From: an uncultured bacterium
GTDB lineage: Bacteria > Oederibacteriota > PGYV01 > Palsa-1178
Assembly (NCBI GenBank): GCA_937889595.1
Contig: CALAOR010000076.1
Location: 159,783-223,782, forward strand
Reading direction: 5' to 3'
Length of the DNA: 64,000 bases
Shown one piece after another: positions 26,933 through 43,063 of this stretch. Under the pieces are notes generated by a model. It had not been told where the DNA came from and made no database searches. It saw only the letters and a list, made by a program, of their open reading frames with translations. Made by a program: the position numbers and the translations under genes. Numbering within the stretch: position 1 is the first letter of the stretch; each line of letters starts with the position of its first letter.

Positions 26933-26975
26933 GACTTCTTCTCCTTGTCGGAATATGCGTTTATTTTGACGGGGA

Positions 26976-27668: not shown

Positions 27669-27778
27669 CTGCCGCGACAGCTCCTTAAAGTGGTTTATTA
27701 ACTGATGACATGATAACACAACGGCAAGTTTAAAGTCAAAGTTAAATTCAAAGTGCCGCCCGTGTTTCTGCTTTAAAA

Positions 27779-27806
27779 TTGACAATTTGTCAAATACTGT
27801 TATAAT
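27779..27806 (+). promoter_or_regulatory. consensus sigma70 promoter for radical SAM copy 2 (TTGACA-16-TATAAT), with the -35 inside a palindrome
   Basis: TTGACA at 27779-27784 and TATAAT at 27801-27806. TTGACAA-T-TTGTCAA (27779-27793) is a perfect inverted repeat. Confidence 0.6.
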
Positions 27807-27849
27807 CTATTAATATTTTCAATAATCGGGTGTCAAAAGAGGAGCGGCA

Positions 27850-29226: not shown

Positions 29227-29423
29227 AAACTGCGTGGAATCAGGATGTTTAAATCCCACCTAAGCCACTGATTTTAGTCGGTGGTGGGGCGTGGGGGCAC
29301 ATGGCTCCACTCCTTGTGGGCCGCCAACACAGTTGGCGGACTCCATCTCCCTTGATGGGAGAGGGTCAGGGTATTCGAAAAGTTACCGACTAAGTCGGTG
29401 GTAATTTACTGATGTTTTAGGGA

Positions 29424-30116
29424 TTAAAACCTGTACTTTATGAGGGCCCACAGGGCCTTGAAGCCGTCAATTGCTTTCATCTTTTTGCCATCGGCATAAC
29501 CCCGGCCATAGAAATTGATCAGGGTCTCATAAATTCTGTATTTCTTTTTGAGCATTTTGGCCGTTATTTCGGGTTCGATTTTAAATCCGTTTGAACGAAG
29601 GTCAAGCCCCTTTATGACATCCGCTTTAAACATCTTATAGCAGGTTTCCATGTCTGTTAACAGGGTGTTATACAGGATGTTAGTCGTGAAGTTGAGGATT
29701 GTGTTTGCTATATAGTTCCAGAACAGGAAAGAACGGTGGGCTCCGCCTAAAAATCTGGAGCCGTAAACTACATCCGCGTGTCCCTGTTCTATGGGGGCGA
29801 GAAGATGCACGTAGTCTGCCGGGTCGTATTCCAGGTCCGCGTCCTGGATTATGACGTAATCGCCTGTTATGTATTTTATGCCCTCGCGTATTGCGGACCC
29901 TTTTCCGATGTTTTTATCCATGAAAATAATCCTGAATGTCCTGCCTTTTTTTGAAAGCGCCTTTAAAATGTCTCGCGTGCCGTCAGTGGAGCCGTCGTCC
30001 ACTATGATAATCTCTTTTTTAAACCCGGGAAGGGCGGATTTTTTCACCTGCGCCGCAGTTTCGCTTATGGTTTTTTTTTCGTTGTAAACCGGCATTATAA
30101 CGGATAGTTTTTTCAT
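29424..30116 (-). CDS. DPM1-like family 2 glycosyltransferase, copy 2
   Basis: MKKLSVIMPVYNE, IIVDDGSTDGT, IIQDADLEYDP. 230 aa and highly similar to copy 1 at both DNA and protein level. Confidence 0.85.
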   Translation of the reverse strand: MKKLSVIMPVYNEKKTISETAAQVKKSALPGFKKEIIIVDDGSTDGTRDILKALSKKGRTFRIIFMDKNIGKGSAIREGIKYITGDYVIIQDADLEYDPADYVHLLAPIEQGHADVVYGSRFLGGAHRSFLFWNYIANTILNFTTNILYNTLLTDMETCYKMFKADVIKGLDLRSNGFKIEPEITAKMLKKKYRIYETLINFYGRGYADGKKMKAIDGFKALWALIKYRF

Positions 30117-30373
30117 CTGCTTTTATTCTCCTGTTAGTGAAATGTTTAATATCGTTAATAAAAACAGCATGATAAGTCAATTTTTTAAGCGGTTTTTTTA
30201 AAACGGTTTTTTTAGCGGTTTAAGTCCAGCTGCAGGCCGGGAATGCCATATTTTGCCTTTACTGGGGGACATTTATGTATTGCGGACATATAAAAAATAT
30301 AGTAAAATATTAAAATTAGGGTTTTGCCGCGGTATTTATCCCAGCAAAATATGTATTTTTAGGAGGCATAAGC

Positions 30374-31156
30374 TTGAAAACTGTGATTTTAGCGGGCGGG
30401 ATCGGGTCCAGGATAAGCGAGGAAAGTTTTTTAAAACCAAAGCCCATGATAGAACTGGGCAACAGCATGCCTATTTTATGGCATATAATGAAATATTATT
30501 CGCATTTCGGGCATAATGATTTTATAATCTGCTGCGGTTATAAAGGCTATCTGATAAAGGAGTATTTTGCCAATTATTACCTTCACCGTTCCGATGTGAC
30601 ATTTGACTTCAAGAAAAAGAACGAGATGATAGTGCATAATAATGTGGCCGAACCCTGGAAAGTCACCCTTGTGGATACGGGCAATAACACAATGACCGGC
30701 GGCCGCGTAAAAAGAATACGCAAATATACGGGCAATGAAACTTTTATGCTCACATACGGGGACGGTGTGGCAAATGTTGATTTGCGTGAATTGCTGGCTT
30801 TTCACAGGAAAAAGAAAAAAATAGCCACTGTTACCGCGGTTCAGCCCGGCGGGCGTTTTGGGACCATAGAAATAAACAAACGTACCGGAAAAACGGTTTT
30901 CCTTGAAAAGAGAATGGAAGACGGCGGTTGGATTAACGGCGGTTTCATGGTTCTGGAACCGGAAATATTTGATCATATAAAGGGCGATAAAAGCGTATTT
31001 GAGAGGCAGGTACTTGAAAAACTCGGGGTAGAAAATGAGCTTTCCGCATATAAACACAGCGGTTTCTGGCAGTGCATGGACACCATGCGCGATAAGTCTT
31101 ACCTGGACGGGCTTGTTGAAAGCAAAAAGGCGCCATGGATGGTGTGGGAAAAGTGA
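30374..31156 (+). CDS. rfbF: glucose-1-phosphate cytidylyltransferase
   Basis: AGGAGG RBS with TTG start. MKTVILAGGIGSRISEES.LKPKPMIELG..PILWHIMKYYSHFGHNDFIICCGYKGYLIKEYFANYYLH.SDVTFD matches the RfbF/DdhA signature closely. Confidence 0.9.
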   Translation: MKTVILAGGIGSRISEESFLKPKPMIELGNSMPILWHIMKYYSHFGHNDFIICCGYKGYLIKEYFANYYLHRSDVTFDFKKKNEMIVHNNVAEPWKVTLVDTGNNTMTGGRVKRIRKYTGNETFMLTYGDGVANVDLRELLAFHRKKKKIATVTAVQPGGRFGTIEINKRTGKTVFLEKRMEDGGWINGGFMVLEPEIFDHIKGDKSVFERQVLEKLGVENELSAYKHSGFWQCMDTMRDKSYLDGLVESKKAPWMVWEK

Positions 31157-32205
31157 GCCTTTCATTTTACCGCGATAAGAAAGTTTTTGTCACCGGGCAT
31201 ACGGGGTTTAAAGGCTCCTGGTTGTGCCGCGCGCTTGTCCTGGCAGGCGTTAATGTCACGGGTTACGCGCTTGCCCCGGAGACCAAACCCGCGCTTTTTG
31301 AGCTGCTTGGTCTGAAAAATGACATGAAGTCCGTGATCGCCGACATAAGGGATTACAAAGCCCTCCTTAAATCCCTGAAAAAATCCAAACCCGAGATTAT
31401 TTTCCACATGGCTGCCCAGCCGCTTGTGAGGGAATCATACAAAAATCCGGTTTATACATATGAAACCAACGTTATGGGCACCGTTAATTTTCTGGAGGCA
31501 TGCAGGTATATCCCGGGCGCGCGTTCGATAGTGAACGTCACGACCGACAAGGTCTATGAAAACCGGGAAATGAACCGCGCCTTTAAGGAAGACGAGCCTC
31601 TTAACGGTTTTGACCCTTATTCAAATTCCAAATCATGCTCGGAACTGGTAACTTCAAGCTACAGGAACAGTTTTTATTCCGCAAAGGGCGCTGTGGCAGT
31701 GTCGACGGCCAGGTCCGGAAACGTCATCGGCGGCGGCGACTTTGCCGCGGACAGGATCATCCCTGACTGTGTCAGGGCTTTAAAGGCGGGCAAACCGGTT
31801 GTAGTGCGCAATCCGGGGGCCGTAAGGCCGTACCAGCACGTGCTTGACTGCATTTCGGGGTACCTTTTGCTGGCTGAAAAACAATATGACGCCGGGCTTT
31901 CCGGCAGCTATAATTTCGGGCCGGACAAATCGGACGTTGTTGATAATGCCGCGCTCGTGGAGCTGTTTTTAGACGCCTGGGGAGGCGGCAGTCGCGTACA
32001 CAGGCATGACAACGGTCCGCATGAAGCCCGTTTCCTGAGGCTGGACTGTTCCAGGGCGAAAAAAATCCTCGGGTGGAAGCCGCGCATGAAAATAGGGGAA
32101 GCTGTCGGATTGACCGCCGAGTGGAGCAGGGCATACCTGGATAAGTCGGGGCATGCGGCATGCGTGGACAGGCAGATAAACGAATATTTCGGGAAGGGCT
32201 TATAA
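31153..32205 (+). CDS. rfbG: CDP-glucose 4,6-dehydratase
   Basis: FYRDKKVFVTGHTGFKGSWL, extended-SDR YSNSK motif, ~350 aa. The GTG at 31153 gives a GTGA overlap with the rfbF stop, the same coupling style as other junctions here. ATG 31135 is the alternative start. Confidence 0.88.
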   Translation: MSLSFYRDKKVFVTGHTGFKGSWLCRALVLAGVNVTGYALAPETKPALFELLGLKNDMKSVIADIRDYKALLKSLKKSKPEIIFHMAAQPLVRESYKNPVYTYETNVMGTVNFLEACRYIPGARSIVNVTTDKVYENREMNRAFKEDEPLNGFDPYSNSKSCSELVTSSYRNSFYSAKGAVAVSTARSGNVIGGGDFAADRIIPDCVRALKAGKPVVVRNPGAVRPYQHVLDCISGYLLLAEKQYDAGLSGSYNFGPDKSDVVDNAALVELFLDAWGGGSRVHRHDNGPHEARFLRLDCSRAKKILGWKPRMKIGEAVGLTAEWSRAYLDKSGHAACVDRQINEYFGKGL

Positions 32206-33551
32206 TGGCGCGCTGGAAAAACAAAAAGCAAGCTGAAGGCGAGATACTCGGAAGTATAAAACAGTTCTATCATCTTTATCATAAAAAATCCGTATATAAA
32301 TCCGGCGACAGGATACCTTACGCCGCAAGGGTCTATGACAGCTCTGAAATGGCCAACCTTGTGGACGCGTCGCTTGAATTCTGGCTGACCGCCGGCAGGT
32401 ATGCCGGTAAATTTGAAAAAAACTTCGCGGATTTCCTCGGCGTCAAATACGCCTACCTGGTGAACTCCGGCTCGTCCGCGAATCTGCTGGCTTTTATGAC
32501 GCTCACCTCGCCGCTTTTGGGGGCAAGGTCCATACAAAGGGGTGATGAAGTCATCACCGTTGCCGCGGGTTTTCCGACCACTGTCGCACCGGTAATACAG
32601 TACGGCGCTGTCCCGGTATTTGTGGATGTCACTATCCCGCAGTATAATATCGACGTAAACGCGCTAAATGGCGCCCTGTCCAAAAGGACAAAAGCGGTTA
32701 TGGTTGCGCACACGCTTGGGAACCCTTTTGACTTAAGGGCTGTAAAGGCATTCTGTGAAAAACACAACCTCTGGCTTATAGAGGATAATTGCGACGCGCT
32801 GGGTTCGAAATACAAGTCAGGCAAGACGTGGAAATACACCGGCTCGTTCGGCGATATAGGCACATCAAGTTTTTATCCCCCGCACCACATGACCATGGGT
32901 GAAGGCGGCGCAGTGTATACAAGCAACCGCCAGCTGGCCCAAATAGCCCTTTCCATGCGCGACTGGGGAAGGGACTGCAGCTGCCCGTCGGGCAGGGACA
33001 ACACGTGCGGCAGGCGTTTTGACGGGCAATTCGGGGAGCTTCCCAAAGGTTATGACCACAAATACGTCTATTCGCACTTCGGGTACAACCTGAAGGCCAC
33101 TGAAATGCAGGCCGCCATCGGCTGCGCCCAACTTGAAAAACTCCCTAGCTTCATTGAGAAGCGCAGGCACAACTGGGAATACCTGAAAAGGGCGCTTTCA
33201 GGTTTATCACACTCCCTTATCTTACCCGAACCCGCGCCGGGCTCCGAACCAAGCTGGTTTGGCTTCCTGATAACGGTAAGGGAAGATTCCGGATTAAGCC
33301 GGGAAAAGATAGTGCGCCATCTCGAAGCCGCGGGAATACAGACAAGGCTCCTTTTTGCGGGGAACCTTATCAAGCATCCCTGTTTTGATGAGATGAGGAA
33401 ATCCGGCAGAGGATTCCGCGTGGCCGGAAAATTAACCCTGACAGACCGTATCATGAACGACACTTTCTGGGTGGGCGTTTATCCGGGCATGACCAAGCCA
33501 ATGCTTGACGCGATGATTGAAGAAATAAAGTCGGCATGCGGAAAAAAGTAG
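32205..33551 (+). CDS. rfbH: CDP-4-keto-6-deoxyglucose 3-dehydrase (E1; RfbH/DdhC/AscC type, DegT fold)
   Basis: TAATG overlap with rfbG. SSFYPPHHMTMGEGG has His where aminotransferases carry the PLP lysine. The Cys cluster RDCSCPSGRDNTC (C-x-C-x7-C) plus an upstream Cys is consistent with the E1 [2Fe-2S] site. Confidence 0.85.
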   Translation: MARWKNKKQAEGEILGSIKQFYHLYHKKSVYKSGDRIPYAARVYDSSEMANLVDASLEFWLTAGRYAGKFEKNFADFLGVKYAYLVNSGSSANLLAFMTLTSPLLGARSIQRGDEVITVAAGFPTTVAPVIQYGAVPVFVDVTIPQYNIDVNALNGALSKRTKAVMVAHTLGNPFDLRAVKAFCEKHNLWLIEDNCDALGSKYKSGKTWKYTGSFGDIGTSSFYPPHHMTMGEGGAVYTSNRQLAQIALSMRDWGRDCSCPSGRDNTCGRRFDGQFGELPKGYDHKYVYSHFGYNLKATEMQAAIGCAQLEKLPSFIEKRRHNWEYLKRALSGLSHSLILPEPAPGSEPSWFGFLITVREDSGLSREKIVRHLEAAGIQTRLLFAGNLIKHPCFDEMRKSGRGFRVAGKLTLTDRIMNDTFWVGVYPGMTKPMLDAMIEEIKSACGKK

Positions 33552-33949
33552 CCGGTTTTGTAAAGAAGTCTTTGGAAAACAGAAAAGTGCGGTTTCTTTT
33601 TGTGGGCGTCCTGAACACAGTCGTGGGATACGGCACATACGCGCTGTTTATATACCTGAAGATGCATTATATTTTGGCAATGATATTCTCAAGTATTATA
33701 TCGGTGACGCACAGCTATCTGTGGAACAAGCATTTTACTTTTAAAAGCACGGATAAGTCCTTTGCGGAAGCAATAAGATTTGTCATGGTATATGCGGTAG
33801 GCATACTTTTGAATATGGTATTGCTTTACGTGTGCATAACTTTATGCCGGATAAACGCCTATGCGGCGGGCGCGACAACCCTTTTAATAACGACCGTGAT
33901 AAGCTACATAGGGCACAAAAAAATAAGTTTTAGGAGCGCAAAAGGCTGA
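33536..33949 (+). CDS. GtrA-family small membrane protein (candidate polyprenyl-phosphate-sugar translocase)
   Basis: 137 aa with 4 predicted TM helices. RFLFVGVLNTVVGYGTYALF...SYLWNKHFTFKS is typical of the GtrA family. Confidence 0.75.
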   Translation: MRKKVAGFVKKSLENRKVRFLFVGVLNTVVGYGTYALFIYLKMHYILAMIFSSIISVTHSYLWNKHFTFKSTDKSFAEAIRFVMVYAVGILLNMVLLYVCITLCRINAYAAGATTLLITTVISYIGHKKISFRSAKG

Positions 33950-35757
33950 TGACAAAAAATAACAGGATAAGGGTGGCTGATTTTATCGCAGGCTGGCTTG
34001 CGGGTAAAAATGTAAAGCATGTCTTTACTGTGACGGGCGGCGGGGCCATGCATTTAAACGACGCTTTTGGAAATCACCCGGAATTGAAATGCGTGTACAA
34101 CCACCATGAGCAGGCCTCAGCGATAGCGGCCGAAGGGTATTATAAGGCGTCGGGAGAGATGTCCGCTGTATGCGTCACAAGCGGCCCAGGCGGCACGAAC
34201 GCTTTGACAGGCGTCCTGGGCGCATGGCTGGATTCTGTCCCTATGTTCGTCATTTCCGGGCAGGTAAGGTTTGAATATACGATAAAATCAGCGCCAAACC
34301 TGAAACTGCGACAGCTTGGGGACCAAGAATTCAATATAACGGATGCGGCAAAGACAATGACAAAATACGCTTTCATGGTAATTGACCCCCAAACGATAAA
34401 ATACCACCTTGAAAAAGCCATGTTCCTGGCAAAGAATGGCCGGCCCGGCCCTGTCTGGCTCGACATACCGCTTGACGTGCAGGCTGCGCAGGTGGAAATG
34501 GAAACACTGCGGGAATATGATGAAAACGGGTATGTGCCTGGACTTGAAAACGATTTGTCCGCGGAAAAGATCGATGAAATCATAAAAAGGATCGAAGCCG
34601 CGAAAAGTCCGGCTATTATTGCCGGGGCAGGCGTAAGGTTAAGCGGCGCCGCAGGGAAGTTCAGTAAACTGATAAAACAGTTAAATATACCGGTTATGAC
34701 AGCATGGAACTCCCATGATTTGGTGGAGGACGCAGACCCGCTGTACGCGGGAAGGCCCGGCACTGTCGGGACAAGGGGCGGGAATTTTGTGTTCCAGAAC
34801 GCGGACCTTATCCTTGTTATAGGATGCAGGATGAACCTGCGGCAGATCGGGTACGCGAAAAACGAGATCGCGCCTAAAGCGTACAAAATAATGGTTGATA
34901 TTGATGAAGCCGAACTGCAAAAAAATACTTTTAAAGCCGATCTGCCTGTTCACTGCGATTGCGGGCGGTTTATAGGGAAACTGCTGGAAACCGGTTACAG
35001 GAAATCCGGAGCGGGCAATGACAAATGGATAAAATGGTGCGGGGATATAAATCTTAAATATCCGCCATTAAAGGATATAGTCAGGAACACAGACCGGCTT
35101 AATCCGTATGTTTTTTTTGATAAATTATACAAACTTTTGCCCGAGGGGCAGACAACGGTTACAGCCAACGGGTCGGCGTGCGTAATATCTTTCCAGACCG
35201 CGCGTATAAAACACGGACAGAGGCTCTTTACGAACAGCGGCTGCGCGGCCATGGGGTATGGCCTGCCTGCGGCCATAGGGGCGTGCGTGTCTTTGGGCAA
35301 AAAAGATATTGTATGCATAGAAGGCGACGGAAGCCTCCAGATGAACATACAGGAGCTTCAAACCGTCATCCAGAACAAACTTCCCATAAAGATATTTGTG
35401 GTGAATAATAACGGGTATTTATCCATCAGGCAGACCCAGGCGAATTTTTTCCATTCGAGGTTCGCGGGCATAGACAGGGCCACGGGGTTGAGTTTTCCCG
35501 ACCTGTCCAAAATAGCGGCAGCTTACGGGATTGATTATTACAGGATAGACTCTGAAGGCGCGGCGAACAAGACTGCGGCTAAAGTTCTCAATACGCATTC
35601 TCCGGTTATCTGCGAAGTTGTGGTGGACCATGAGCAGAATTTTGTCCCGAAATCGTCCTCAAAATTATCGCCGGACGGGAAGATGTCGTCGGCTCCGCTT
35701 CACGACATGTATCCCTTCCTGCCGGAAAAAGAGATGAATGACAATGTATACCGCTGA
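33949..35757 (+). CDS. thiamine-diphosphate enzyme of the acetolactate-synthase family (YerE-like candidate)
   Basis: TGATG junction. N-terminal TPP domain (HHEQASAIAAEGYYKASG...VTSGPGGTNALTGV). ThDP motif in IEGDGSLQMNIQELQT...FVVNNNGY. Confidence 0.85.
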   Translation: MTKNNRIRVADFIAGWLAGKNVKHVFTVTGGGAMHLNDAFGNHPELKCVYNHHEQASAIAAEGYYKASGEMSAVCVTSGPGGTNALTGVLGAWLDSVPMFVISGQVRFEYTIKSAPNLKLRQLGDQEFNITDAAKTMTKYAFMVIDPQTIKYHLEKAMFLAKNGRPGPVWLDIPLDVQAAQVEMETLREYDENGYVPGLENDLSAEKIDEIIKRIEAAKSPAIIAGAGVRLSGAAGKFSKLIKQLNIPVMTAWNSHDLVEDADPLYAGRPGTVGTRGGNFVFQNADLILVIGCRMNLRQIGYAKNEIAPKAYKIMVDIDEAELQKNTFKADLPVHCDCGRFIGKLLETGYRKSGAGNDKWIKWCGDINLKYPPLKDIVRNTDRLNPYVFFDKLYKLLPEGQTTVTANGSACVISFQTARIKHGQRLFTNSGCAAMGYGLPAAIGACVSLGKKDIVCIEGDGSLQMNIQELQTVIQNKLPIKIFVVNNNGYLSIRQTQANFFHSRFAGIDRATGLSFPDLSKIAAAYGIDYYRIDSEGAANKTAAKVLNTHSPVICEVVVDHEQNFVPKSSSKLSPDGKMSSAPLHDMYPFLPEKEMNDNVYR

Positions 35758-35775
35758 AAAAAAGGGAAAAATATC

Positions 35776-37371
35776 ATGAGAAATATAAAGATACTCGACT
35801 GCACCCTGCGCGACGGCGGGTTTGTGAACGACTGGAACTTCGGCAAAGGCAGCATAAAGAGCATAATAGGGAGGCTCGATAAAGCCGGCGTTGATATAGT
35901 GGAGACAGGGTTCCTGGACAGCCGCCGCAAGTATGACCCGGACCGTTCCATACAACCTGACACGGGGTCGTTTAAGGCCATCCTGGAAAACACGGACGTA
36001 AAACACGCGATGATGATCGCCATGATAGATTTCGGGACATGCGGGATCGAAGCCATAGAACAGCAGGGCGCTTCCTGCATAAGCGGGATAAGGGTTATAT
36101 TCAAGAAAAAGGACTGCGAAGCGGCGCTGAAGTTCTGCGCTTTGCTTAAAGAAAAAGGGTATAAAGTATTCGTAAATCCCGTCTCTACAACAGGTTATTC
36201 CGACGATGAAATGGCCGGCCTGCTCGATGAGGTTAATAAACTCGAGCCCTACGGCATATCAATCGTGGATACATACGGCCTGATGCATAAAAAAGAGCTT
36301 TTGCACTATTTCCGGCTCATGGACAGCAGGTTAAAACCCGCGATAAATATAGGTTATCATTCCCATAATAATTTCCAGCTTTCGTACGCGAACTGCATAG
36401 AACTGCTGGAAATACAGTCAGAGCGCGGGCTGATACTTGACGGTTCACTTTACGGCATGGGCAAAGGCGCCGGCAACGCCAATACCGAGCTGATAGCCAT
36501 GCATTTAAACAGGTATTTTGGCGCGCACTATGACGTAAACCAGCTTTTGGAGGCGATAGACGTCGATATCATGAAAGAATACGCGAAAAAATACTGGGGA
36601 TATTCCCTAATGCATTTTATCGCGGCTTCAAACGACTGCCATCCTGATTTTGTGAAGACGCTTATCGAGAAAAAGACCCTTTCCGTAAGATCGATAAATG
36701 AGATACTGCAGAAACTGGAGCATAAGACCAGTCTTACGTTCAATAAGGACCTGATAGAAAAAATGTACGAAGAATACCAGAACGTGGAAGTTGACGATAC
36801 CGGGGGCTATATAAGGCTGGCAAAAGAGTTCGGGGACCTGCCCATACTTATAATTGCCCCGGGAAATTCAATAGTAAAACACAAAGAGGAAATAGATAAA
36901 TACATAGCCGGGCACAAGCCATTGGTGATATCGATAAATTTTGTGACAGACATGTATAAAACCGATTATGTTTTCTTCGGGAACGCGAAGAGGTACAGCC
37001 AGTTCTATGACGAGATATACAGGACAGGAGCGGACGCAAAGGTGATATGCACTTCAAATGTATCGGAATCGAACAAATCCATAGATTTTATCTTTAATTT
37101 CAATTCCCTGGTAAGCAGAGAAGCTCCCATAAGGGATAATCCCATGCTCATGCTGCTGAAAATACTGGTGAAAATGAAGGTTAAATCAGCGGTTTTGGCG
37201 GGTTTTGACGGCTATTCAGGGCGTAGTACGGACAATTATTTTAACGAATATGTCAAGTTCCTGTACTGCGATGATGATGTGGTTTTAAGGAATGAACTTA
37301 TTAAAAATAAGGTTAAAGAGTTTAAAAATGAAATTGATCTGGGGTTTTTGACTCCTACAGCGTATTTGTAG
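35776..37371 (+). CDS. HMGL-like (pyruvate carboxyltransferase/aldolase TIM-barrel) protein with an uncharacterised C-terminal Rossmann-like domain
   Basis: The N-terminus reads ILDCTLRDGGFVNDW.FG......I...L.KAGVDIVETG. HSHNN metal-site region. The C-terminal ~200 aa (PILIIAPGNSI...VLAGFDGY) faintly resemble the MptE/DUF115 type. Confidence 0.65.
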   Translation: MRNIKILDCTLRDGGFVNDWNFGKGSIKSIIGRLDKAGVDIVETGFLDSRRKYDPDRSIQPDTGSFKAILENTDVKHAMMIAMIDFGTCGIEAIEQQGASCISGIRVIFKKKDCEAALKFCALLKEKGYKVFVNPVSTTGYSDDEMAGLLDEVNKLEPYGISIVDTYGLMHKKELLHYFRLMDSRLKPAINIGYHSHNNFQLSYANCIELLEIQSERGLILDGSLYGMGKGAGNANTELIAMHLNRYFGAHYDVNQLLEAIDVDIMKEYAKKYWGYSLMHFIAASNDCHPDFVKTLIEKKTLSVRSINEILQKLEHKTSLTFNKDLIEKMYEEYQNVEVDDTGGYIRLAKEFGDLPILIIAPGNSIVKHKEEIDKYIAGHKPLVISINFVTDMYKTDYVFFGNAKRYSQFYDEIYRTGADAKVICTSNVSESNKSIDFIFNFNSLVSREAPIRDNPMLMLLKILVKMKVKSAVLAGFDGYSGRSTDNYFNEYVKFLYCDDDVVLRNELIKNKVKEFKNEIDLGFLTPTAYL

Positions 37372-37422
37372 CGGGGCGGTATGTCATAAGATATGGAAAA
37401 AATTTAAGAAGGAGAAAAAAGC

Positions 37423-38088
37423 GTGAAAACTTTATTTATAACCGGAGGCAGCAGGGGGATCGGCGCTGCAATTGCCGATAAATTCATAAAAGATGATTAT
37501 CATGTTATTATGCCTGCCCGCGGGGAAATGGATCTTTCATCCCCTGTTTCAATCAAAAAGTATTTCAAAAAGAACAGCGGTATCAAGGTTGACTGCATCG
37601 TGAACAACGCGGGGGTCAACCCGCTTGCTTTTGTGGATGAACTGACCGATGAAGAGATATTTGAGACTGTCAATGTGAACCTGATAGCGCCGCTTATGAT
37701 AACGCGGGCGCTGGTAAAAGGCATGAAAAAACGGGGTTGCGGACGCATAGTAAATATAGGGTCCATATGGGGCGTTGTTTCAAAGGAAAAAAGGGCGGTA
37801 TATTCCATGACCAAAAACGGGATACACGGCCTGACCAATACCCTCGCTGTCGAACTGGGGGGGGACAATATACTTGTAAATACCGTATGCCCGGGATATA
37901 CAAATACAGAACTTACAAAAAAAAATGTCCCGCTTCCTGAAGCAAAAAATATATCAAAAGACATTCCGCTGGGCAGGTTCGCGGAGCCTGAAGAAATAGC
38001 GGAAATTGTATATTTCCTCGGCTCAAGCCGGAACACTTATATTACTGGCCAGAAAATAGTGATAGACGGCGGGTTTACAATAAAATGA
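37423..38088 (+). CDS. short-chain dehydrogenase/reductase (FabG-like)
   Basis: AAGGAG RBS with GTG start. TGGSRGIG cofactor motif and YSMTKNG (YxxxK) catalytic motif. Confidence 0.85.
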   Translation: MKTLFITGGSRGIGAAIADKFIKDDYHVIMPARGEMDLSSPVSIKKYFKKNSGIKVDCIVNNAGVNPLAFVDELTDEEIFETVNVNLIAPLMITRALVKGMKKRGCGRIVNIGSIWGVVSKEKRAVYSMTKNGIHGLTNTLAVELGGDNILVNTVCPGYTNTELTKKNVPLPEAKNISKDIPLGRFAEPEEIAEIVYFLGSSRNTYITGQKIVIDGGFTIK

Positions 38089-39128
38089 TCATATCCTCAC
38101 ACGCCAAGAAATACAGCGTGGAAGTCACAGATGCCGGGTTTATAACCCGGTTGATGGAAAAATCTTACAAGCTCGTTATAATAGATAAAAAGGTCTATGA
38201 CCTTTACAGGAACACGCTGCTCGCCGGGTTAAAAAAAGAAACGTTGTATCTGTTCGATGCCGTTGAAAAAAACAAGAATGCGGGTTCAGCGCTTAAAATA
38301 TGCGGGAAGATGGCTGAAATATCCTTTAAACGCGGTGATGAGCTGGTTTCAATAGGCGGCGGCATAGTGCAGGATGTTACGGGTTTTGCCGCGAATATAT
38401 TCAACCGCGGCGTCAGGTGGACCTTTATCCCGACTACACTGCTTGCGCAGTGCGACAGCTGCGTAGGCGGAAAAACATCGCTTAATTTTTCGGCATATAA
38501 AAACATACTCGGCACTTTTTACGCGCCGGATAATATTTATATCTGCCTTGATTTTGTAAAGACGCTTACAGAGGATGATTATCTCAGCGGCATGGGGGAG
38601 GTCGCCAAATTCAACATAATGTCCGCAAAAGACGGCATAGGCCTGCTTGAAAACAATATGGAAAAGCTTCTTGCCCGCGATACCGGGGTCCTGAAATTCT
38701 TTGTCGAACGGTCGCTTGAATTCAAGAAGCGCTTTATTGAGGAGGATGAATTTGATCTTGATGTGAGAAACCTCCTGAATTTTGCCCACACCTTCGGCCA
38801 CGCGTATGAAAAGACAAGCAATTACGCCATACCGCACGGGCAGGCGGTGACATTGGGGCTTATAACGGCCAATAATATTTCACGCGCGCGAAATATGCTT
38901 GATCCCGCCCTGAAGGAAAGAATAGAAAAAATATGCATGAATTTTATATCCGTGAAACTGAAAAAAGAATGGTTCCTGGCGGATAAGGTGATAGAAGCCA
39001 TGAAAAAGGACAAAAAGAGGAAGTCGGATAAACTGGCCGCTGTGCTTTTTTCATCAGACCTTTCCCTGAAAGTGGTGCAGGATTTGGAACAAAAGGAAGT
39101 TGCTGAAGCGCTTTCATTTATATTGTAA
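38085..39128 (+). CDS. 3-dehydroquinate synthase-like enzyme (sugar-phosphate cyclase superfamily)
   Basis: ATGA overlap with the SDR gene. GGGIVQDVTGFAA, IPTTLLAQCDSCVGGKTSLN, KNILGTFYAP, GMGEVAKF, HTFGHAYE and IPHGQAVTLG are all colinear with the DHQS fold. Confidence 0.8.
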   Translation: MIISSHAKKYSVEVTDAGFITRLMEKSYKLVIIDKKVYDLYRNTLLAGLKKETLYLFDAVEKNKNAGSALKICGKMAEISFKRGDELVSIGGGIVQDVTGFAANIFNRGVRWTFIPTTLLAQCDSCVGGKTSLNFSAYKNILGTFYAPDNIYICLDFVKTLTEDDYLSGMGEVAKFNIMSAKDGIGLLENNMEKLLARDTGVLKFFVERSLEFKKRFIEEDEFDLDVRNLLNFAHTFGHAYEKTSNYAIPHGQAVTLGLITANNISRARNMLDPALKERIEKICMNFISVKLKKEWFLADKVIEAMKKDKKRKSDKLAAVLFSSDLSLKVVQDLEQKEVAEALSFIL

Positions 39129-39197
39129 TGGTTTGTACTTTAAAGAAGGTGAAAACATGTCAAGACTGATTGAAATAATTAAGAATACAAACAGGCG

Positions 39198-40895
39198 GTG
39201 GATATGAGAAAAAAGAAATTCACTGACGGCAAAACACATAAGGCAGCCTCGTTATCTTATGTGCGGCCGGTTTCGGATGTTTTTAATGTAAAAGAGAGTA
39301 TGCGGCTGGACAGGAAGGCGTTGCTGTTTGTTTTGGGGATTTTTATTGTACTTGCCGGAGTTTTTTATTTTGGAAAGATTCTTGACGTATTCAATTTAAT
39401 AAGAGGTTTGATCCTGTGCGTGATCATTTTTTTTATTTCTTCGGTATATTTCTCCGTCAGGGGGAAAGAGCTTAACAAAGATGATAAAATACGTTCCATA
39501 AGCGCGATAGTTGTTATAGGGTTTGGGGCGGCGGTTATTTATCATTACTTTGTCGGAGCATATCTTAACGTGGGATACCCGACAAATTCGTTTTTGTTTA
39601 TTCCCCAGGATAGATTCATGGATTTCATTAATAATAGTCAATTGCAGACACAGTACAACGGATCATATTCTTACGGCGGGAGTCCAACCAACTACCTGTT
39701 TAATTTGTTCTCTTTGTTTAATAATAAGAGTGTTGTAAATAATTACGTTATATTTGCAAGTTTTTTTACTGTATTTTTATTAATATATAACTTCTTATAT
39801 ATGAAAAAACAAAATTATTCATTCGTTTCTCATTCTGGGGATTTGTTCATTCTAACTTTTCTTTCTTATCCGTACTTATTTTGTATTGACCGTGGGAATC
39901 CGGAAATGCTTATTTTTGTATTTCTATCAATTGCAATTTATTGCCATTTAAGAGGCAGGGATATATTAGCCGCCGCATTTCTGTCTTTTGCCATATCTGC
40001 GAAAATATATTTCATCATTTTTTTACTATTGTTCCTTGTTGACAAAAAGTACAAAGAGCTTGTCTTAAGCCTGCTATTCATGGTTATTATAAAAAAATTA
40101 ATGCCTCTAATTGATAAAACGCTATATTCATCTGCAAATCCAAGCCATCTCCAGACCGATTTGGCACTGATTTCTATATTATTTATATTTGCAATCAGTC
40201 TTGTGCTGGTTAATTGGAACAAGGTGTATAATGATTTGAAAATAAATGTCATGTTATTTTTGAAGCACGTCAATTTATATGCAATAAGAAGAAAAATGTT
40301 AATAGCAACAATCACGGCGGTTTCATTGCTGGCGATAGCCGGTTTGTTTACAAAATTTGGGGATATTTACAAAAAAATCTATAATGATTTTCTGGGTCCA
40401 AACGTTCTTTATAATGCCAACTATGCGATAGGTGACGGTGGAGCGGCGCACTGCAGCAGTATTTACGGCATGGCAAAAGAGGTTTTAATTATGACAAAAT
40501 CAAAAGTGCCTGTTACAACACTTTTTAATGTATATCCTTTTATTGTAGCTGTGTTATTTGTCGGGTTACTTATATATTTGTTTTTTGTTGAAAAGGTAAT
40601 ATGGAAAAAAGTTGCAATATTAACGTTGTCACTATTTGCATTTCCTTTTGTTACTGCGGATTATCGTCTTATTCATATTTTTATCCCGATGTGGCTGTTT
40701 ATTAATAACGAAACAAAAAGTAAATTTGATCCTTTATATGCGATTATGTTTGGTTTGATGCTTATTCCAAACAAATATTTCATATTGCGGGGGGGGGTGG
40801 GGGAAGGGAGCATAACTCACGCATTGACAATAATTGTATTTATGTCTTTAATTATCTTTGATGGAATAAAAAATAAACTGAAACAGGAGTGTTAA
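39198..40895 (+). CDS. AT-rich polytopic membrane protein (Wzy- or GT-C-like; function unknown)
   Basis: 565 aa with more than 10 hydrophobic segments and acidic loop motifs (PQDRFMDF, CIDRGNPEM). Visibly more AT-rich than its neighbours. It contains a G9 tract at 40789-40797. ATG 39204 is an alternative start. Confidence 0.5.
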   Translation: MDMRKKKFTDGKTHKAASLSYVRPVSDVFNVKESMRLDRKALLFVLGIFIVLAGVFYFGKILDVFNLIRGLILCVIIFFISSVYFSVRGKELNKDDKIRSISAIVVIGFGAAVIYHYFVGAYLNVGYPTNSFLFIPQDRFMDFINNSQLQTQYNGSYSYGGSPTNYLFNLFSLFNNKSVVNNYVIFASFFTVFLLIYNFLYMKKQNYSFVSHSGDLFILTFLSYPYLFCIDRGNPEMLIFVFLSIAIYCHLRGRDILAAAFLSFAISAKIYFIIFLLLFLVDKKYKELVLSLLFMVIIKKLMPLIDKTLYSSANPSHLQTDLALISILFIFAISLVLVNWNKVYNDLKINVMLFLKHVNLYAIRRKMLIATITAVSLLAIAGLFTKFGDIYKKIYNDFLGPNVLYNANYAIGDGGAAHCSSIYGMAKEVLIMTKSKVPVTTLFNVYPFIVAVLFVGLLIYLFFVEKVIWKKVAILTLSLFAFPFVTADYRLIHIFIPMWLFINNETKSKFDPLYAIMFGLMLIPNKYFILRGGVGEGSITHALTIIVFMSLIIFDGIKNKLKQEC

Positions 40896-40978
40896 TATGG
40901 TTTTTTGCGTGTTTTATAAAAAGTTGAGTTTTATAACAAAATACTAAAAAATCCAAATAACAAAAAGGGCAAATTTAT

Positions 40979-41896
40979 ATGCAAAGCATAATACTGACAG
41001 GCGCGACAGGAATGCTGGGTACGGCGGTTATTGCAGAATGCATAAAGAATGGGATATCTGTTACGGCTGTGGCAAGGCCGTCATCCTACAGGCTTGGCAG
41101 GATCCCGAAATCCGGCAGTGTCACAGTTATTGAGTGCGGGCTTGACAATATGCATAAACTGCCTGCGCTTGTCACGGGAAAACATGACGCTTTTTACCAT
41201 TTGGGGTGGCTTGGCACCTCGAAAAGTGAAAGAAATGATCCGGCTATCCAGGAGTTAAACGTAAAATACACTCTGGACGCGGTGAATGTTGCGGACGAAT
41301 TGGGCTGCGGTTTGTTTTTGGGGGCGGGCTCACAGGCTGAATATGGCAGGTATGACGTCCCCATAAAGGAAGATTTTGAAACAAAGCCTGATACTGCTTA
41401 TGGAAGGGCGAAACTTTCGGCCTGCAAGAGTTCCGCGGAATTATGCGGCAGATTGAAGATAAAGCATGTGTGGACGCGTATTTTCAGCGTCTATGGCCCG
41501 AATGATTCACCTTCAACAATGGTGATGTACTTCATAGGCAGGCTACTTGATAACCAGCGGGCATCGCTGTCTAAATGCACACAGATATGGGATTATATGT
41601 ATTGTTCTGACGCGGCACGGGCCCTCCTGCTGGCCGGGGAAAAGGGCGGGGGCGGGCGGATATATAATGTTGGAAACGGTATTGGACGCCCCCTGATAGA
41701 GTATGTTAATATATTAAGGGACGCGATTGACCCCGCTGCCGTATTGGGCATAGGGGAGCTTAAACAGGTCGGAAAGCTCATGAACCTTTGCGCTGATATC
41801 ACAAAGATAAAAAAAGACACGAGTTTTAAGCCTATGGTCCCGTTTGAGCGCGGTATAGAAGAGACCATTAAATGGTACAGGGAGAATATAAAATGA
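40979..41896 (+). CDS. NAD(P)-dependent epimerase/reductase of the extended SDR family (RfbS/RfbJ-like 4-reductase candidate)
   Basis: ILTGATGMLGTAV cofactor motif and YGRAK (YxxxK). ~305 aa, the size and class of CDP-dideoxyhexose 4-ketoreductases. Confidence 0.75.
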   Translation: MQSIILTGATGMLGTAVIAECIKNGISVTAVARPSSYRLGRIPKSGSVTVIECGLDNMHKLPALVTGKHDAFYHLGWLGTSKSERNDPAIQELNVKYTLDAVNVADELGCGLFLGAGSQAEYGRYDVPIKEDFETKPDTAYGRAKLSACKSSAELCGRLKIKHVWTRIFSVYGPNDSPSTMVMYFIGRLLDNQRASLSKCTQIWDYMYCSDAARALLLAGEKGGGGRIYNVGNGIGRPLIEYVNILRDAIDPAAVLGIGELKQVGKLMNLCADITKIKKDTSFKPMVPFERGIEETIKWYRENIK

Positions 41897-42825
41897 AAAA
41901 AATTTCTATAATGATACCGACTTACAACGAACAGGATAATGTAAAACCGCTGTGCGCCGAGGTGCAGAAGATATTTTCGGAAAAACTGCGTAATTATGAT
42001 TATGAGATCCTTTTTATCGACAATTATTCCATGGATAAAACACGGGAATATATAGCTCAGCTTTGCGCGGAAAATAAAAAAGTAAAAGCGATCTTTAATG
42101 CCAGGAATTTCGGGCAGGTCAGGTCGCCTTTTTACGGGATACTTCAGGCGACAGGGGACTGCGTCATAGCGATATGCGCCGATTTTCAGGACCCGCCTGA
42201 ACTTATTGAAACATTTGTCAGGGAATGGGAAAACGGCTATAAGATAGTGACCGGGAAAAAGTATAAAAGCAGGGAAAATCCTGTGATGTATTTCCTGCGT
42301 TCGCTTTATTACAAATTCATAAAGCGGGTTGCGGAAACAGAGCAGATAGAGCAATTTACGGGTTTCGGGCTTTATGACAGGGCGTTTATCGAAGTACTAA
42401 AGAAACTTGACGACCCCATGCCTTATATGCGCGGGATCGTGGCTGAGCTCGGGTACGCACGCAAAGAAATAGAATACACACAGAACAAGCGGCGTTCCGG
42501 TAAAACAAAGAACAACTGGTATACGCTCTATGACATGGGCATGCTCGGCATAACTTCGTATTCCAAGATGGTCATGAGGACAGCCACTATCATGGGTTTT
42601 TTTATCGCGGGAATGTCCTTTGCCGTCGCCATGTATTACCTCGTCATGAAGCTTGTATACTGGCAAAGGTTCCCGCTTGGTACCGCTCCGGTCATCATAT
42701 CAATATTTTTCCTGGGGTCGGTACAGCTTTTTTTTATAGGGTTCCTGGGGGAGTATATACTTAATATAAACACCAGGGTCATGAAAAGGCCGCTGGTGGT
42801 TGAGGAGAAAAGGATAAATTTCTGA
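41893..42825 (+). CDS. GtrB/ArnC-like family 2 glycosyltransferase (polyprenyl-phosphate sugar synthase) with two C-terminal TM helices
   Basis: ATGA overlap with the preceding gene. ISIMIPTYNE, LFIDNYSMDKT, ICADFQDPPE. The C-terminal helices are IMGFFIAGMSFAVAMYYLV and VIISIFFLGSVQLFFIGFLGEY. Confidence 0.8.
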   Translation: MKKISIMIPTYNEQDNVKPLCAEVQKIFSEKLRNYDYEILFIDNYSMDKTREYIAQLCAENKKVKAIFNARNFGQVRSPFYGILQATGDCVIAICADFQDPPELIETFVREWENGYKIVTGKKYKSRENPVMYFLRSLYYKFIKRVAETEQIEQFTGFGLYDRAFIEVLKKLDDPMPYMRGIVAELGYARKEIEYTQNKRRSGKTKNNWYTLYDMGMLGITSYSKMVMRTATIMGFFIAGMSFAVAMYYLVMKLVYWQRFPLGTAPVIISIFFLGSVQLFFIGFLGEYILNINTRVMKRPLVVEEKRINF

Positions 42826-43063
42826 TCCAAAAGAAATTCTCCGTTGCTTTTTCCCGCAGCCTGCAAGGCAAGGGATTTGCCGGGCATTGCCAAAATTCAG
42901 CTGTAAAAAATTGTCAATATTTTGTTTGCTTTTATAAGGGTAATATAGTAAAATTTATTTGTTGGCTTGAAGATACAAGATCCGGCAATGGACGGCGCGC
43001 TTTTAAGTTGGCCATTGCTGAAATTACCCAAAACGGGCGCGGGCCGTCAAGGAGACCTGTAAT

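Follow-up and report, generated by a model that had tools for sequence, protein, structure and literature searches.

The operon at 30374-42825 of the window, by which we mean the whole 64,000-nucleotide stretch of DNA analysed, probably (at a rough probability of 0.65) makes a caryophyllose-type sugar, that is, a CDP-activated 3,6-dideoxyhexose carrying a long acyl-derived branch at C4, which would be exported on a lipid carrier. Reading of the ORFs in the window placed eight genes between 30374 and 39128, all on the + strand, where an earlier note on this DNA had put them. The four junctions listed in that note were also found by direct reading: GTGA at 31153-56 (rfbF/rfbG), TAATG at 32203-07 (rfbG/rfbH), TGATG at 33947-51 (gtrA/ThDP gene), and ATGA at 38085-88 (SDR/DHQS-like gene). 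rfbH and gtrA overlap by 16 nt, gene overlaps in the operon range from 1 to 22 nt, and the gaps between the ThDP and HMGL genes (18 nt) and between the HMGL and SDR genes (51 nt) each contain a purine-rich stretch ahead of the start. With all ORFs present and either overlapping or closely spaced, the eight-gene region is genuine and tightly coupled. The functional unit is longer than the previous end coordinate of 39128 suggests. It extends to at least 42825 and takes in three downstream genes recognized by Pfam and NCBIfam, for a membrane protein resembling GT87, a GT2 and, between them, an extended SDR (Table 1). The GtrA gene did not appear in the earlier account.

Table 1. Genes of the operon, with positions in the window and supporting matches
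Feature	Position	Strand	Support
rfbF/ddhA, glucose-1-phosphate cytidylyltransferase	30374..31156	+	TIGR02623 398.6 bits (cut-off 300.25)
rfbG/ddhB, CDP-glucose 4,6-dehydratase	31135..32205	+	TIGR02622 437.7 bits (cut-off 278)
rfbH/ddhC, E1-type CDP-4-keto-6-deoxyglucose 3-dehydrase	32160..33551	+	NF011936 717.9 bits (cut-off 423)
GtrA-family small membrane protein, putative flippase for polyprenyl-phosphate-linked sugar	33536..33949	+	Pfam GtrA_DPMS_TM 88.2 bits
YerE-like ThDP-dependent carboligase	33949..35757	+	three TPP domains (Pfam)
HMGL-type (DmpG/BphI-like) pyruvate aldolase (residues 1-265) with Maf/MptE-like nucleotide-binding-fold domain (266-531)	35776..37371	+	
Short classical SDR (FabG-like ketoreductase), 221 aa	37423..38088	+	Pfam adh_short 138 bits; TGGSRGIG motif
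DHQS-like enzyme, family TIGR04425, paralogue of housekeeping aroB	38085..39128	+	TIGR04425 422.5 bits (cut-off 400)
Candidate GT87-like glycosyltransferase (integral membrane protein, GT-C type)	39198..40895	+	Pfam GT87 26.2 bits (cut-off 25)
Extended SDR (nucleotide-sugar epimerase/reductase family)	40979..41896	+	Pfam Epimerase 119.5 bits
GT2, polyprenyl-phosphate glycosyltransferase type (GtrB/ArnC/PgfS-like)	41872..42825	+	Pfam Glycos_transf_2 83.9 bits

RfbF, RfbG and RfbH all scored above their curated family cut-offs, in agreement with the proposed entry to CDP-3,6-dideoxyhexoses, and would together convert glucose-1-phosphate to CDP-4-keto-3,6-dideoxy-D-glucose. rfbG starts either at ATG 31135 or at the in-frame GTG 31153, the latter overlapping the rfbF stop, and rfbH likely starts at ATG 32205, inside the TAATG junction. 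The RfbH translation contains both motifs described for an E1-type enzyme, PPHHM with His replacing the aminotransferase Lys, and CSCPSGRDNTC, which is a C-x-C-x7-C cluster. An AscD-type E3 was found neither in the 64-kb window, as had been observed before, nor genome-wide in this 98.96% complete assembly, where none of the five NAD_binding_1 proteins has the Fer2+FAD_binding_6+NAD_binding_1 architecture. E1 activity would thus depend on electrons from some non-AscD reductant.

To judge from its sequence, the ThDP enzyme is YerE-like and not an acetolactate synthase. It carries the GDG motif, scored 357 bits against TIGR00118, below the cut-off of 538, and is 31% identical to the IlvB of the same genome. 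Its best solved relative is 8rph (JanthE) at 414 bits, much nearer than 5ahk (258 bits), which we take to be the YerE homologue of Pseudomonas protegens, or AHAS 6lpi (239 bits). JanthE is a YerE-like enzyme (PMC12188165, available part). We infer that it removes CO2 from an alpha-keto acid and that the acyl anion is then joined to C4 of a CDP-4-keto sugar.

For comparison with related loci, 155 relatives of the DHQS-like protein were found and 80 loci from many phyla were kept, in which the presence of SDR, ThDP, aldolase, rfbF/rfbG and rfbH was counted with a 50% query-coverage filter. A ThDP gene was present in 56 of 80 loci. Among these 56, rfbF or rfbG occurred in 44 and E1-type rfbH, at no less than 44% identity, in 33, while no E1-type rfbH was found within 10 kb in the other 23. 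One of these is L001, the closest relative, where rfbF and rfbH are both missing and just a 26% identical rfbG-like dehydratase is within reach, and the acceptor sugar therefore varies. An SDR homologue was detected in 69 of 80 loci, mostly directly upstream of the DHQS-like gene, and by this gene order the short SDR is tied, as an obligate neighbour, to the DHQS-like gene rather than to the ThDP enzyme. Of the yersiniose logic proposed earlier, the rfbFGH entry, ThDP-dependent branching and a reductase are supported, and the choice of this SDR as the reductase is not. The extended SDR is a likelier candidate for the YerF/ErwF-type reductase of the branch ketone: the structures related to it in the PDB are those of NDP-sugar epimerases and reductases, and in many Bacillota loci it sits directly after the ThDP gene and before the GT2 gene.

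The aldolase in these loci comes from three unrelated families, HMGL (25 loci), HpcH (34) and NeuB (4), with the SDR-DHQS-like pair directly downstream of the HMGL genes and of most of the HpcH ones. In the window, the Pfam HMGL-like match (77 bits) spans just residues 4-258 of 531, and the extra C-terminal domain previously reported is therefore real. Structural-database relatives of the aldolase are the putative aldolase 3dxi and 4-hydroxy-2-oxovalerate aldolases. It scored 83.7 against the 4-hydroxy-2-oxovalerate aldolase model, below the cut-off of 286. The predicted structure of the C-terminal domain (pLDDT 85) matched Maf (Z 12.2), MptE HPPK (Z 11.3) and sialyltransferases (Z 8-10), with a glycosyltransferase as top match, and only one of 24 homologues matched Pfam MptE-like. 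Because Mycobacterium marinum encodes a sugar kinase in a gene of its own, we speculate, from the similarity in fold, that the domain may supply the phosphate. The glycosyltransferase as top match, the single MptE-like homologue and the lack of any kinase gene in our window weigh against this.

Of the membrane and transfer genes, gtrA has counterparts in 8 of 80 loci, all weakly similar at 29-35% identity and three of them, in L012, L013 and L015, at the same position, and Pfam GtrA ORFs were found in L031, L042 and L061. The GT87-like protein has a 38% identical homologue in L001, and a GT87 gene is also present in the Clostridia locus L013. The GT2 best matched PgfS (177.7) and ArnC (115.5) in NCBIfam, neither reaching the cut-off, and had homologues at 45% identity or above in 21 of the 56 ThDP loci.

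Taken as a caryophyllose-type route, the pathway would continue from the CDP-4-keto sugar as follows. The aldolase would join pyruvate and an aldehyde into a 4-hydroxy-2-oxo acid, as its family and the published scheme suggest, and this keto-acid donor would then be tailored by the DHQS-like enzyme together with the SDR paired with it. Acting on a DAHP-like 3-deoxy-2-ulosonate omega-phosphate, the DHQS-like enzyme would carry out oxidation by NAD+, beta-elimination of phosphate and re-reduction, and the short SDR would reduce the methyl ketone so formed. This would give an omega-deoxy keto acid, for example 3,7-dideoxyheptulosonate, the donor that a 1,3,4,5-tetrahydroxyhexyl branch requires. 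The ThDP enzyme would decarboxylate the keto acid and add the remainder to C4, and the extended SDR would reduce the 1'-ketone. Finally, the GT2 would put the sugar on polyprenyl phosphate, GtrA would flip the loaded carrier, and attachment of the sugar outside the membrane would fall to the GT87-like enzyme or to GT-C enzymes encoded nearby.

In this scheme the DHQS-like enzyme probably strips the phosphate from a DAHP-like keto acid and leaves the side chain with a methyl end. Carbocycle formation, which the earlier note had raised, is possible and less well supported: the enzyme would be a true cyclase turning a DAHP-like aldolase product into a dehydroquinate-like carbocycle, to be reduced by the SDR and to end in a glycan as a cyclitol or as a fused ring resembling caryose. 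The DHQS motifs RG, DSxxGxK, KN, GE..K, K..DE..R..LN..H..GH, HG and DKK, with residue roles that are presumably those of the Aspergillus nidulans structure, are each kept in at least 95% of 50 family members, and just five family-specific differences separate them from four bona fide DHQS. NCBIfam names TIGR04425 a putative cyclising phospholyase, and all characterised members known to us within the superfamily of sugar phosphate cyclases are cyclases. Ring opening and aldol closure, the last two steps of DHQS, are probably spontaneous. Evidence for their catalysis by DHQS itself is scarce (PMC7144000, available part). With these steps perhaps spontaneous and the active site almost unchanged, the enzyme might cyclise; moreover, Burkholderia caryophylli contains caryose together with caryophyllose, and the available part of PMC9092360 describes the route to caryose as unknown. 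However, 7 of 80 loci have a CMP-ulosonate-type cytidylyltransferase instead of the ThDP enzyme beside the aldolase-SDR-DHQS-like genes, the two occurring together in 0 of 7, and since both enzymes need a 2-keto acid, the donor must stay one. Aldol closure onto C2 would destroy it in the 56 loci as in the 7. In addition, Pfam and NCBIfam revealed no window gene able to attach a free carbocycle, and caryophyllose, the product linked to an M. marinum locus with the same gene kinds, has an acyclic, methyl-terminated branch (PMC5706390, available part). We therefore regard cyclisation as unlikely.

It is rather improbable that the operon serves two products, one being plain yersiniose, with a two-carbon branch from pyruvate, made by rfbFGH and the ThDP enzyme with a reductase, and the other an unrelated metabolite, such as a deoxy-ulosonic acid, made for the same glycan by the aldolase, SDR and DHQS-like enzyme. 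The seven loci with a CMP-type cytidylyltransferase and no ThDP gene fit such a division, as does a cluster of 768-aa proteins, most often from Campylobacterota, that pairs the Pfam families CTP_transf_3 and HMGL-like and is structurally close to the C-terminal domain in the Atlas, and YpYerE itself uses pyruvate (PMC12247030, available part). Against this, RfbF is the sole cytidylyltransferase in the window, no other activating enzyme for a second product is present there, and an aldolase accompanies the ThDP gene in 54 of 56 loci, the remaining two being contigs of 2.8 and 9.7 kb. ErwE refuses pyruvate and accepts aldolase products (PMC9306805), and M. marinum mutants in 2331, 2332 and 2333 had no caryophyllose, a loss that the aldolase and ThDP mutants share (PMC9306805; PMC5706390, available part).

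A chance placement beside an rfb operon, with the ThDP, aldolase and DHQS-like genes working in the metabolism of branched-chain amino acids or shikimate, is very improbable. Among named NCBIfam models these genes do score best with acetolactate synthase, 4-hydroxy-2-oxovalerate aldolase and aroB, but all three matches fall under the curated cut-offs (269 bits against 305 for the DHQS-like enzyme and TIGR01357), genes in the operon overlap, and the cassette recurs beside CDP-sugar genes across phyla. Such a role is contradicted by this conservation and by complete ilvD-ilvB-ilvN-ilvC (IlvB, 873 bits) and aroC-aroK-aroB (AroB, 377 bits against TIGR01357) operons elsewhere in the genome.

The earlier note knew of no described pathway to match, whereas the caryophyllose-type reading fits the "unifying scheme" that Steitz et al. 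(2022) published for the acyl-branched sugars erwiniose, caryophyllose and gastriose, in which a keto acid made by an aldolase is used by a ThDP enzyme, followed by a reductase, and for which ErwE, MMAR_2332 and MyGE were assayed (PMC9306805). The route is most likely a known one in which parts vary: the aldolase is HMGL-type and fused to a Maf/MptE-like domain, there is no separate kinase, and no AscD-type E3 was found. With the erwiniose genes of Pectobacterium atrosepticum (ErwE, ErwF, ErwI, ErwJ; PMC9306805) the operon has in common CDP-4-keto-3,6-dideoxyglucose, an HMGL/BphI-type pyruvate aldolase that makes the keto-acid donor, a ThDP enzyme resembling YerE, and a reductase. It differs in that a BphJ/DmpF-type acetaldehyde dehydrogenase partner is not among the ORFs of this window, and in its DHQS-like/SDR pair, of which the text of PMC9306805 makes no mention and for which "dehydroquinate" occurs 0 times in the supplement. 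The DHQS-like enzyme shares with AroB and sugar phosphate cyclases the same two Pfam domains and the catalytic, Zn-binding and phosphate/carboxylate-binding motifs, but is 33% identical to the AroB of its own genome, falls under the aroB equivalog cut-off and over that of TIGR04425, and among related loci was never in a shikimate context, its neighbours being SDR and aldolase genes in glycan loci. E1-type RfbH entry, ThDP-dependent branching at C4 and ketoreduction are shared with YerE/YerF of Yersinia pseudotuberculosis, where pyruvate is the sole donor and neither an aldolase nor a DHQS-like gene takes part. Yersinia also has an E3 partner of E1, of the kind not found in our genome.

The closest resemblance in gene content is to M. 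marinum MMAR_2327-2336, with nine of ten gene kinds in common when matched by annotated family name, not by alignment: GT87 (MMAR_2327), DHQS-family, short-chain dehydrogenase, aldolase, ThDP, GT2 (MMAR_2333), glucose-1-phosphate cytidylyltransferase (MMAR_2334, the kind of rfbF), RfbH and CDP-glucose 4,6-dehydratase (PMC12395582, available part). There too, the DHQS-family gene and SDR are immediately beside the aldolase and ThDP genes. The tenth kind, a sugar kinase, has no separate counterpart here, and the aldolase is HMGL/DmpG-type with its C-terminal domain rather than of the aldolase/citrate-lyase (HpcH) family. The operon described here includes a GtrA gene and an extended SDR, and its host is a member of an uncultured candidate phylum.

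The gene content reported for 30374-39128 in the earlier note was confirmed in the window sequence, where an ORF survey returned eight ORFs in one direction, and the junctions GTGA, TAATG, TGATG and ATGA were read in the sequence. RfbF (TIGR02623, 398.6 bits) and RfbG (TIGR02622, 437.7 bits) scored above their curated cut-offs, and RfbH reached 717.9 bits against the NF011936 curated equivalog cut-off of 423. In E1 enzymes a His replaces the PLP-binding Lys and a C-x-C-x7-C iron-sulfur motif is present; the RfbH translation carries both, as PPHHM and CSCPSGRDNTC. Between rfbH and the ThDP gene there is also a GtrA-family gene, absent from the earlier note, and the short SDR is of the classical type with 221 aa. 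Downstream of the DHQS-like gene, the unit continues with a GT87-like membrane protein, an extended SDR and a polyprenyl-phosphate-type GT2, ends at 42825, and is followed by four GT-C/PA14 genes. A scan of 29400-43200 for promoters and terminators gave no operon boundaries: it returned 41 promoter-like sites (26.3 +/- 6 in shuffles), with no + strand site in the gap upstream of rfbF among the matches listed, and 19 terminator-like sites (16.1 +/- 4 in shuffles), every + strand one being inside a gene.

Upstream of rfbF lies a divergent group of - strand genes. Within it, a 240-aa ORF without a family match overlaps a 458-aa ORF on the + strand, so that the two are alternative gene calls. Elsewhere in the window, very large genes (1217-1371 aa) are flanked by two ORFs that weakly match IS200-like Y1 transposases. 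These large genes match FlgD_ig and, weakly, Por_Secre_tail, as would type IX secretion cargo.

Coordinates of the operon, its surroundings and the related loci discussed in the text
Feature	Location	Strand	Remark
Operon	window 30374-42825	+	rfbF to GT2
ThDP enzyme	window 33949-35757	+	three TPP domains
HMGL-like aldolase	window 35776-37371	+	531 residues
Short SDR	window 37423-38088	+	classical type
DHQS-like protein	window 38085-39128	+	family TIGR04425
Upstream group	window 25556-30116	-	divergent from rfbF
B12-binding radical SAM enzyme	window 25556-26932	-	upstream group
GT2	window 26976-27785	-	upstream group
240-aa ORF	window 27790-28512	-	without family match
458-aa ORF	window 27850-29226	+	overlaps the 240-aa ORF
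GT2	window 29424-30116	-	upstream group
Y1 transposase-like ORF	window 4640-5191		weak IS200-like match
Y1 transposase-like ORF	window 19512-20057		weak IS200-like match
Closest related locus	L001:1-21029		cassette genes
Dehydratase-like gene	L001:134-1141		NDP-sugar type
FNR-like ORF	L042:4911-5603		Chloroflexia
Second cassette type	L045:4981-11982		cytidylyltransferase
Second cassette type	L055:5548-11997		cytidylyltransferase
DHQS-family gene	G029:C117:27785-28837 (L092)		phylum relative

In the unifying scheme for acyl-branched sugars proposed and partly demonstrated by Steitz et al. 2022 (PMC9306805), the hydroxylated alpha-keto acid formed by a pyruvate aldolase is joined to CDP-4-keto-3,6-dideoxyglucose by a YerE-like ThDP enzyme, and a reductase finishes erwiniose, caryophyllose or gastriose. 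Since the donor is made by a pyruvate aldolase in this scheme, the aldolase of the window operon is an expected pathway member. The earlier note had read the operon as a CDP-3,6-dideoxyhexose pathway extended by YerE-type chemistry whose product matched no described pathway; the pathway logic stands, but the second part has to be given up in view of the scheme and of the M. marinum locus compared below.

The ThDP enzyme scored 357 bits to TIGR00118 (biosynthetic acetolactate synthase) against a cut-off of 538, while the genome's own IlvB, encoded in ilvD-ilvB-ilvN-ilvC on another contig and 31% identical to the window enzyme, scored 873 bits. Against solved structures it scored 414 bits to 8rph, 258 to 5ahk and 239 to the best true acetohydroxyacid synthase. 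8rph is JanthE from Janthinobacterium, which is YerE-like and for which the physiological substrates are stated as unknown in the sections consulted (PMC12188165). The canonical GDG motif is present in the window enzyme but not in JanthE. By these match scores against the curated model and solved structures, the window enzyme is classed as YerE-like and not as a biosynthetic acetolactate synthase. It sits in one operon with rfbFGH, which are NDP-4-keto-deoxysugar genes, and is a putative ketone-accepting carboligase with an alpha-keto acid as its predicted donor. Krug et al. 2024 reportedly surveyed more than 200 YerE-like clusters, and JanthE is said to have been described by Lanza et al. 2024.

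The conservation of the cassette was examined in 155 confirmed relatives of the DHQS-like protein from a species-representative genome collection, of which the best 80 were kept, with genes counted by tblastn with window proteins and locus-derived proteins under a 50% coverage filter. These best 80 of 155 loci span Bacillota, Chloroflexota, Planctomycetota, Armatimonadota, Nitrospirota, several proteobacterial classes, Spirochaetota and Micrarchaeota MAGs. The short SDR was present in 69 of the 80, in nearly every case as the gene immediately preceding the DHQS-like one, and the ThDP enzyme in 56. An aldolase accompanied the ThDP enzyme in 54 of these 56 loci, the remaining two being contigs of 2.8 and 9.7 kb, with rfbF or rfbG in 44 and E1-type rfbH in 33. 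Across the 80 loci the aldolase was of the HMGL kind with the same C-terminal domain (25), HpcH/HpaI (34) or NeuB (4). All of the HMGL and most of the HpcH genes take the position just before the SDR and DHQS-like genes, a case of non-orthologous displacement within a conserved module. When partners of amino-acid or shikimate metabolism were sought in related genomes, the cassette instead recurred with CDP-sugar genes. Together with the separate ilv and aro operons of the genome, this conserved cassette argues against the chance fusion of unrelated operons that the earlier note had considered.

Seven of the 80 loci (best 80 of 155) carry the module with a CMP-ulosonate-type cytidylyltransferase replacing the ThDP enzyme, and the two never occur together. 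A second cassette type, found in L045, L055, L047, L048, L049 and L056, combines a CTP_transf_3 cytidylyltransferase, SDR, DHQS-like protein and D-2-hydroxyacid dehydrogenase without ThDP enzyme or E1-type rfbH, and may lead to a CMP-activated deoxy-ulosonic acid. An HpcH aldolase is also found in L045, L047, L048 and L055, and methyltransferase and radical SAM genes lie near the cassette in L045 and L055.

The closest locus, L001, is from a MAG that carries the label candidate division FCPU426 and falls in the family-level group of the window's genome; its protein identity is 54-75% over the shared cassette genes. It holds ThDP, aldolase, SDR, DHQS-like, extended SDR, GT2 and GT-C genes, with neither rfbF nor rfbH within 10 kb; a different NDP-sugar dehydratase-like gene is present, so the acceptor sugar may differ there. 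The next closest proteins, among the best 80 of 155 loci, are from Bacillota at about 50% identity. A sample of 61 genomes from the phylum yielded only 2 above the TIGR04425 cut-off, and the single same-genus genome (94% complete) had nothing above it. Thus, the cassette is patchy, fitting a variable surface-glycan locus. A search of plasmids with the DHQS-like protein returned ordinary aroB genes only, at about 32% identity. One phylum relative has, in addition to an ordinary aroB, a DHQS-family gene with an intermediate TIGR04425 score of 298.8 bits, short of the cut-off.

The absence of an E3 partner of RfbH from the window, also stated in the earlier note, extends to the whole genome (98.96% complete), where no [2Fe-2S] flavoprotein of AscD/DdhD type was found: none of its five NAD_binding_1 proteins combines Fer2, FAD_binding_6 and NAD_binding_1. 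RfbH could be served by three PyrK-like FNR proteins that bear a [2Fe-2S] motif at their C-terminus and have no link to the operon. E3-like ORFs numbered 0 in the best 80 of 155 loci by a crude motif heuristic, which missed an FNR-like ORF in L042. That ORF, 230 aa long and weakly matching NAD_binding_1, is flanked by rfbH and the extended SDR. It has no window counterpart and may serve as a minimal stand-in for E3.

The HMGL-like match of the aldolase is limited to residues 4-258 of 531. Its identity as a 4-hydroxy-2-oxovalerate aldolase (DmpG/BphI) was rejected, with 83.7 bits to TIGR03217 against 286, no DmpF/BphJ partner, and no aldehyde dehydrogenase among the window's ORFs. A model of the C-terminal domain (residues 266-531), built on 24 homologues with a pLDDT of 85, was matched by VIA-align to a Maf flagellin glycosyltransferase (Z 12.2), an MptE-type pterin pyrophosphokinase (MptE HPPK; Z 11.3), SteA (Z 11.0), bacterial and animal sialyltransferases (Z 7.7-10) and thiamin pyrophosphokinases (Z about 7), over unrelated rows at Z about 5, and Foldseek agreed with TM 0.34-0.50. 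Pfam MptE-like matched 1 of the 24 homologues (E = 1.2e-4), and the window protein itself had no match. The modelled fold resembles those of nucleotide-dependent group-transfer enzymes. A putative kinase role is attractive, since the kinase encoded separately in M. marinum is missing from the window, where profile searches found no kinase family among the ORFs. No kinase was found among the larger unassigned ORFs examined in the HpcH-type loci L042, L046 and L031 and the NeuB-type locus L061. Stand-alone proteins of 285-320 aa with this C-terminal domain exist, and one of its structural neighbours in the Atlas is a cluster of 768-aa proteins with both CTP_transf_3 and HMGL-like domains, most often from Campylobacterota.

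The DHQS-like protein scored 422.5 bits to TIGR04425 (cut-off 400), which was not exceeded in any of 14 control genomes. A housekeeping aroB was rejected, as the protein falls below the TIGR01357 equivalog cut-off (269.3 bits vs 305) and the genome's real AroB (377 bits, 33% identical) is encoded in aroC-aroK-aroB, a shikimate operon on another contig. When 50 family members were aligned with that AroB, the DHQS motifs RG, DSxxGxK, KN, GE..K, K..DE..R..LN..H..GH, HG and DKK were each kept in at least 95% of the members and agreed with that AroB; we take these to be catalytic, zinc-, phosphate- or carboxylate-binding residues, after the Aspergillus nidulans structure. The active sites of sugar phosphate cyclases were reportedly treated by Wu et al. 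2007. Compared with four ordinary DHQS, the family has five positions fixed differently, among them a Q in place of G in the GGGxxGD loop; these are too few to judge cyclisation. With the motifs kept and only five positions differing, the substrate should closely resemble DAHP as a terminally phosphorylated 3-deoxy-2-ulosonate, the kind of compound that an aldolase would form from pyruvate plus an aldose phosphate.

As described in the part of PMC5706390 consulted, the caryophyllose branch is a methyl-terminated 1,3,4,5-tetrahydroxyhexyl chain. The donor needed for it is 3,7-dideoxyheptulosonate, that is, DAHP minus the phosphate oxygen. Based on the kept motifs, the need for a 2-keto acid downstream and this methyl-ended branch, we infer that the DHQS-like enzyme would carry out oxidation, phosphate elimination and re-reduction of a DAHP-like keto acid, and that the SDR would reduce the resulting methyl ketone. 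True cyclisation by the DHQS-like enzyme would destroy the 2-keto acid, which must survive because both the ThDP enzyme and the CMP-type cytidylyltransferase need it. It is nevertheless a live alternative, since ring opening and aldol closure in DHQS are probably spontaneous. The sections of PMC7144000 consulted point to little evidence that DHQS itself catalyses these steps, and the carbocyclic sugar caryose is given an origin stated as unknown in those of PMC9092360.

Our joint reading, to which we give roughly one chance in three, is that TIGR04425 enzymes are, in their physiological role, not ring-formers and dephosphorylate a DAHP-like 3-deoxy-ulosonate phosphate by the redox-elimination chemistry of DHQS, with the SDR trapping the methyl ketone before it cyclises, to give the terminal methyl of caryophyllose-type chains and of some CMP-deoxy-ulosonic acids, and with the Maf/MptE-like domain acting as the kinase in the HMGL variant; a bolder branch of this reading is that some hosts let cyclisation proceed to caryose-like carbocyclic sugars. 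The literature search returned nothing on the TIGR04425 family by name, and caryophyllose and dehydroquinate did not occur together among the matches listed; the survey of Krug et al., outside this search, may treat DHQS-like genes.

Caryophyllose, erwiniose and gastriose are rare long acyl-branched deoxysugars on the surfaces of pathogens and environmental bacteria. Among uncultured bacteria, those that display them can be predicted from the cassette, which is also a source of new ThDP carboligases and aldolases for biocatalysis. The interesting part is the DHQS-like/SDR module together with the fused Maf/MptE-like domain. In the papers examined, the published scheme covers the aldolase, ThDP enzyme and reductase, but not the DHQS-family gene, SDR and kinase of M. 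marinum. Across many phyla the DHQS-like/SDR pair accompanies three unrelated aldolase families and two downstream activating enzymes, and is therefore a defined module with a testable function, while the window variant, with its fused aldolase and without a separate kinase, could reveal the source of the phosphate.

The closest known system is the LOS locus of M. marinum, for which the supplementary tables consulted (PMC12395582) give, as RefSeq names, GT87 (MMAR_2327), putative sugar kinase (MMAR_2328), short chain dehydrogenase (MMAR_2330), ThDP-binding protein (MMAR_2332), GT2 (MMAR_2333), RfbH (MMAR_2335) and CDP-glucose 4,6-dehydratase (MMAR_2336). According to the parts consulted of PMC9306805 and PMC5706390, mutants in 2331, 2332 and 2333 lost caryophyllose addition. 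Matched by annotation name, not by alignment, 9 of the 10 annotated gene kinds of MMAR_2327-2336 are found in the window operon. In comparison, the M. marinum caryophyllose set, as annotated there, has an aldolase/citrate-lyase (HpcH) aldolase and a sugar kinase, whereas the window has an HMGL-like aldolase and no kinase family. By this analogy, caryophyllose itself is a putative product, as a predicted type only, and the window operon is best read as serving the synthesis of an acyl-branched sugar of caryophyllose type, with the aldolase as its variant part.
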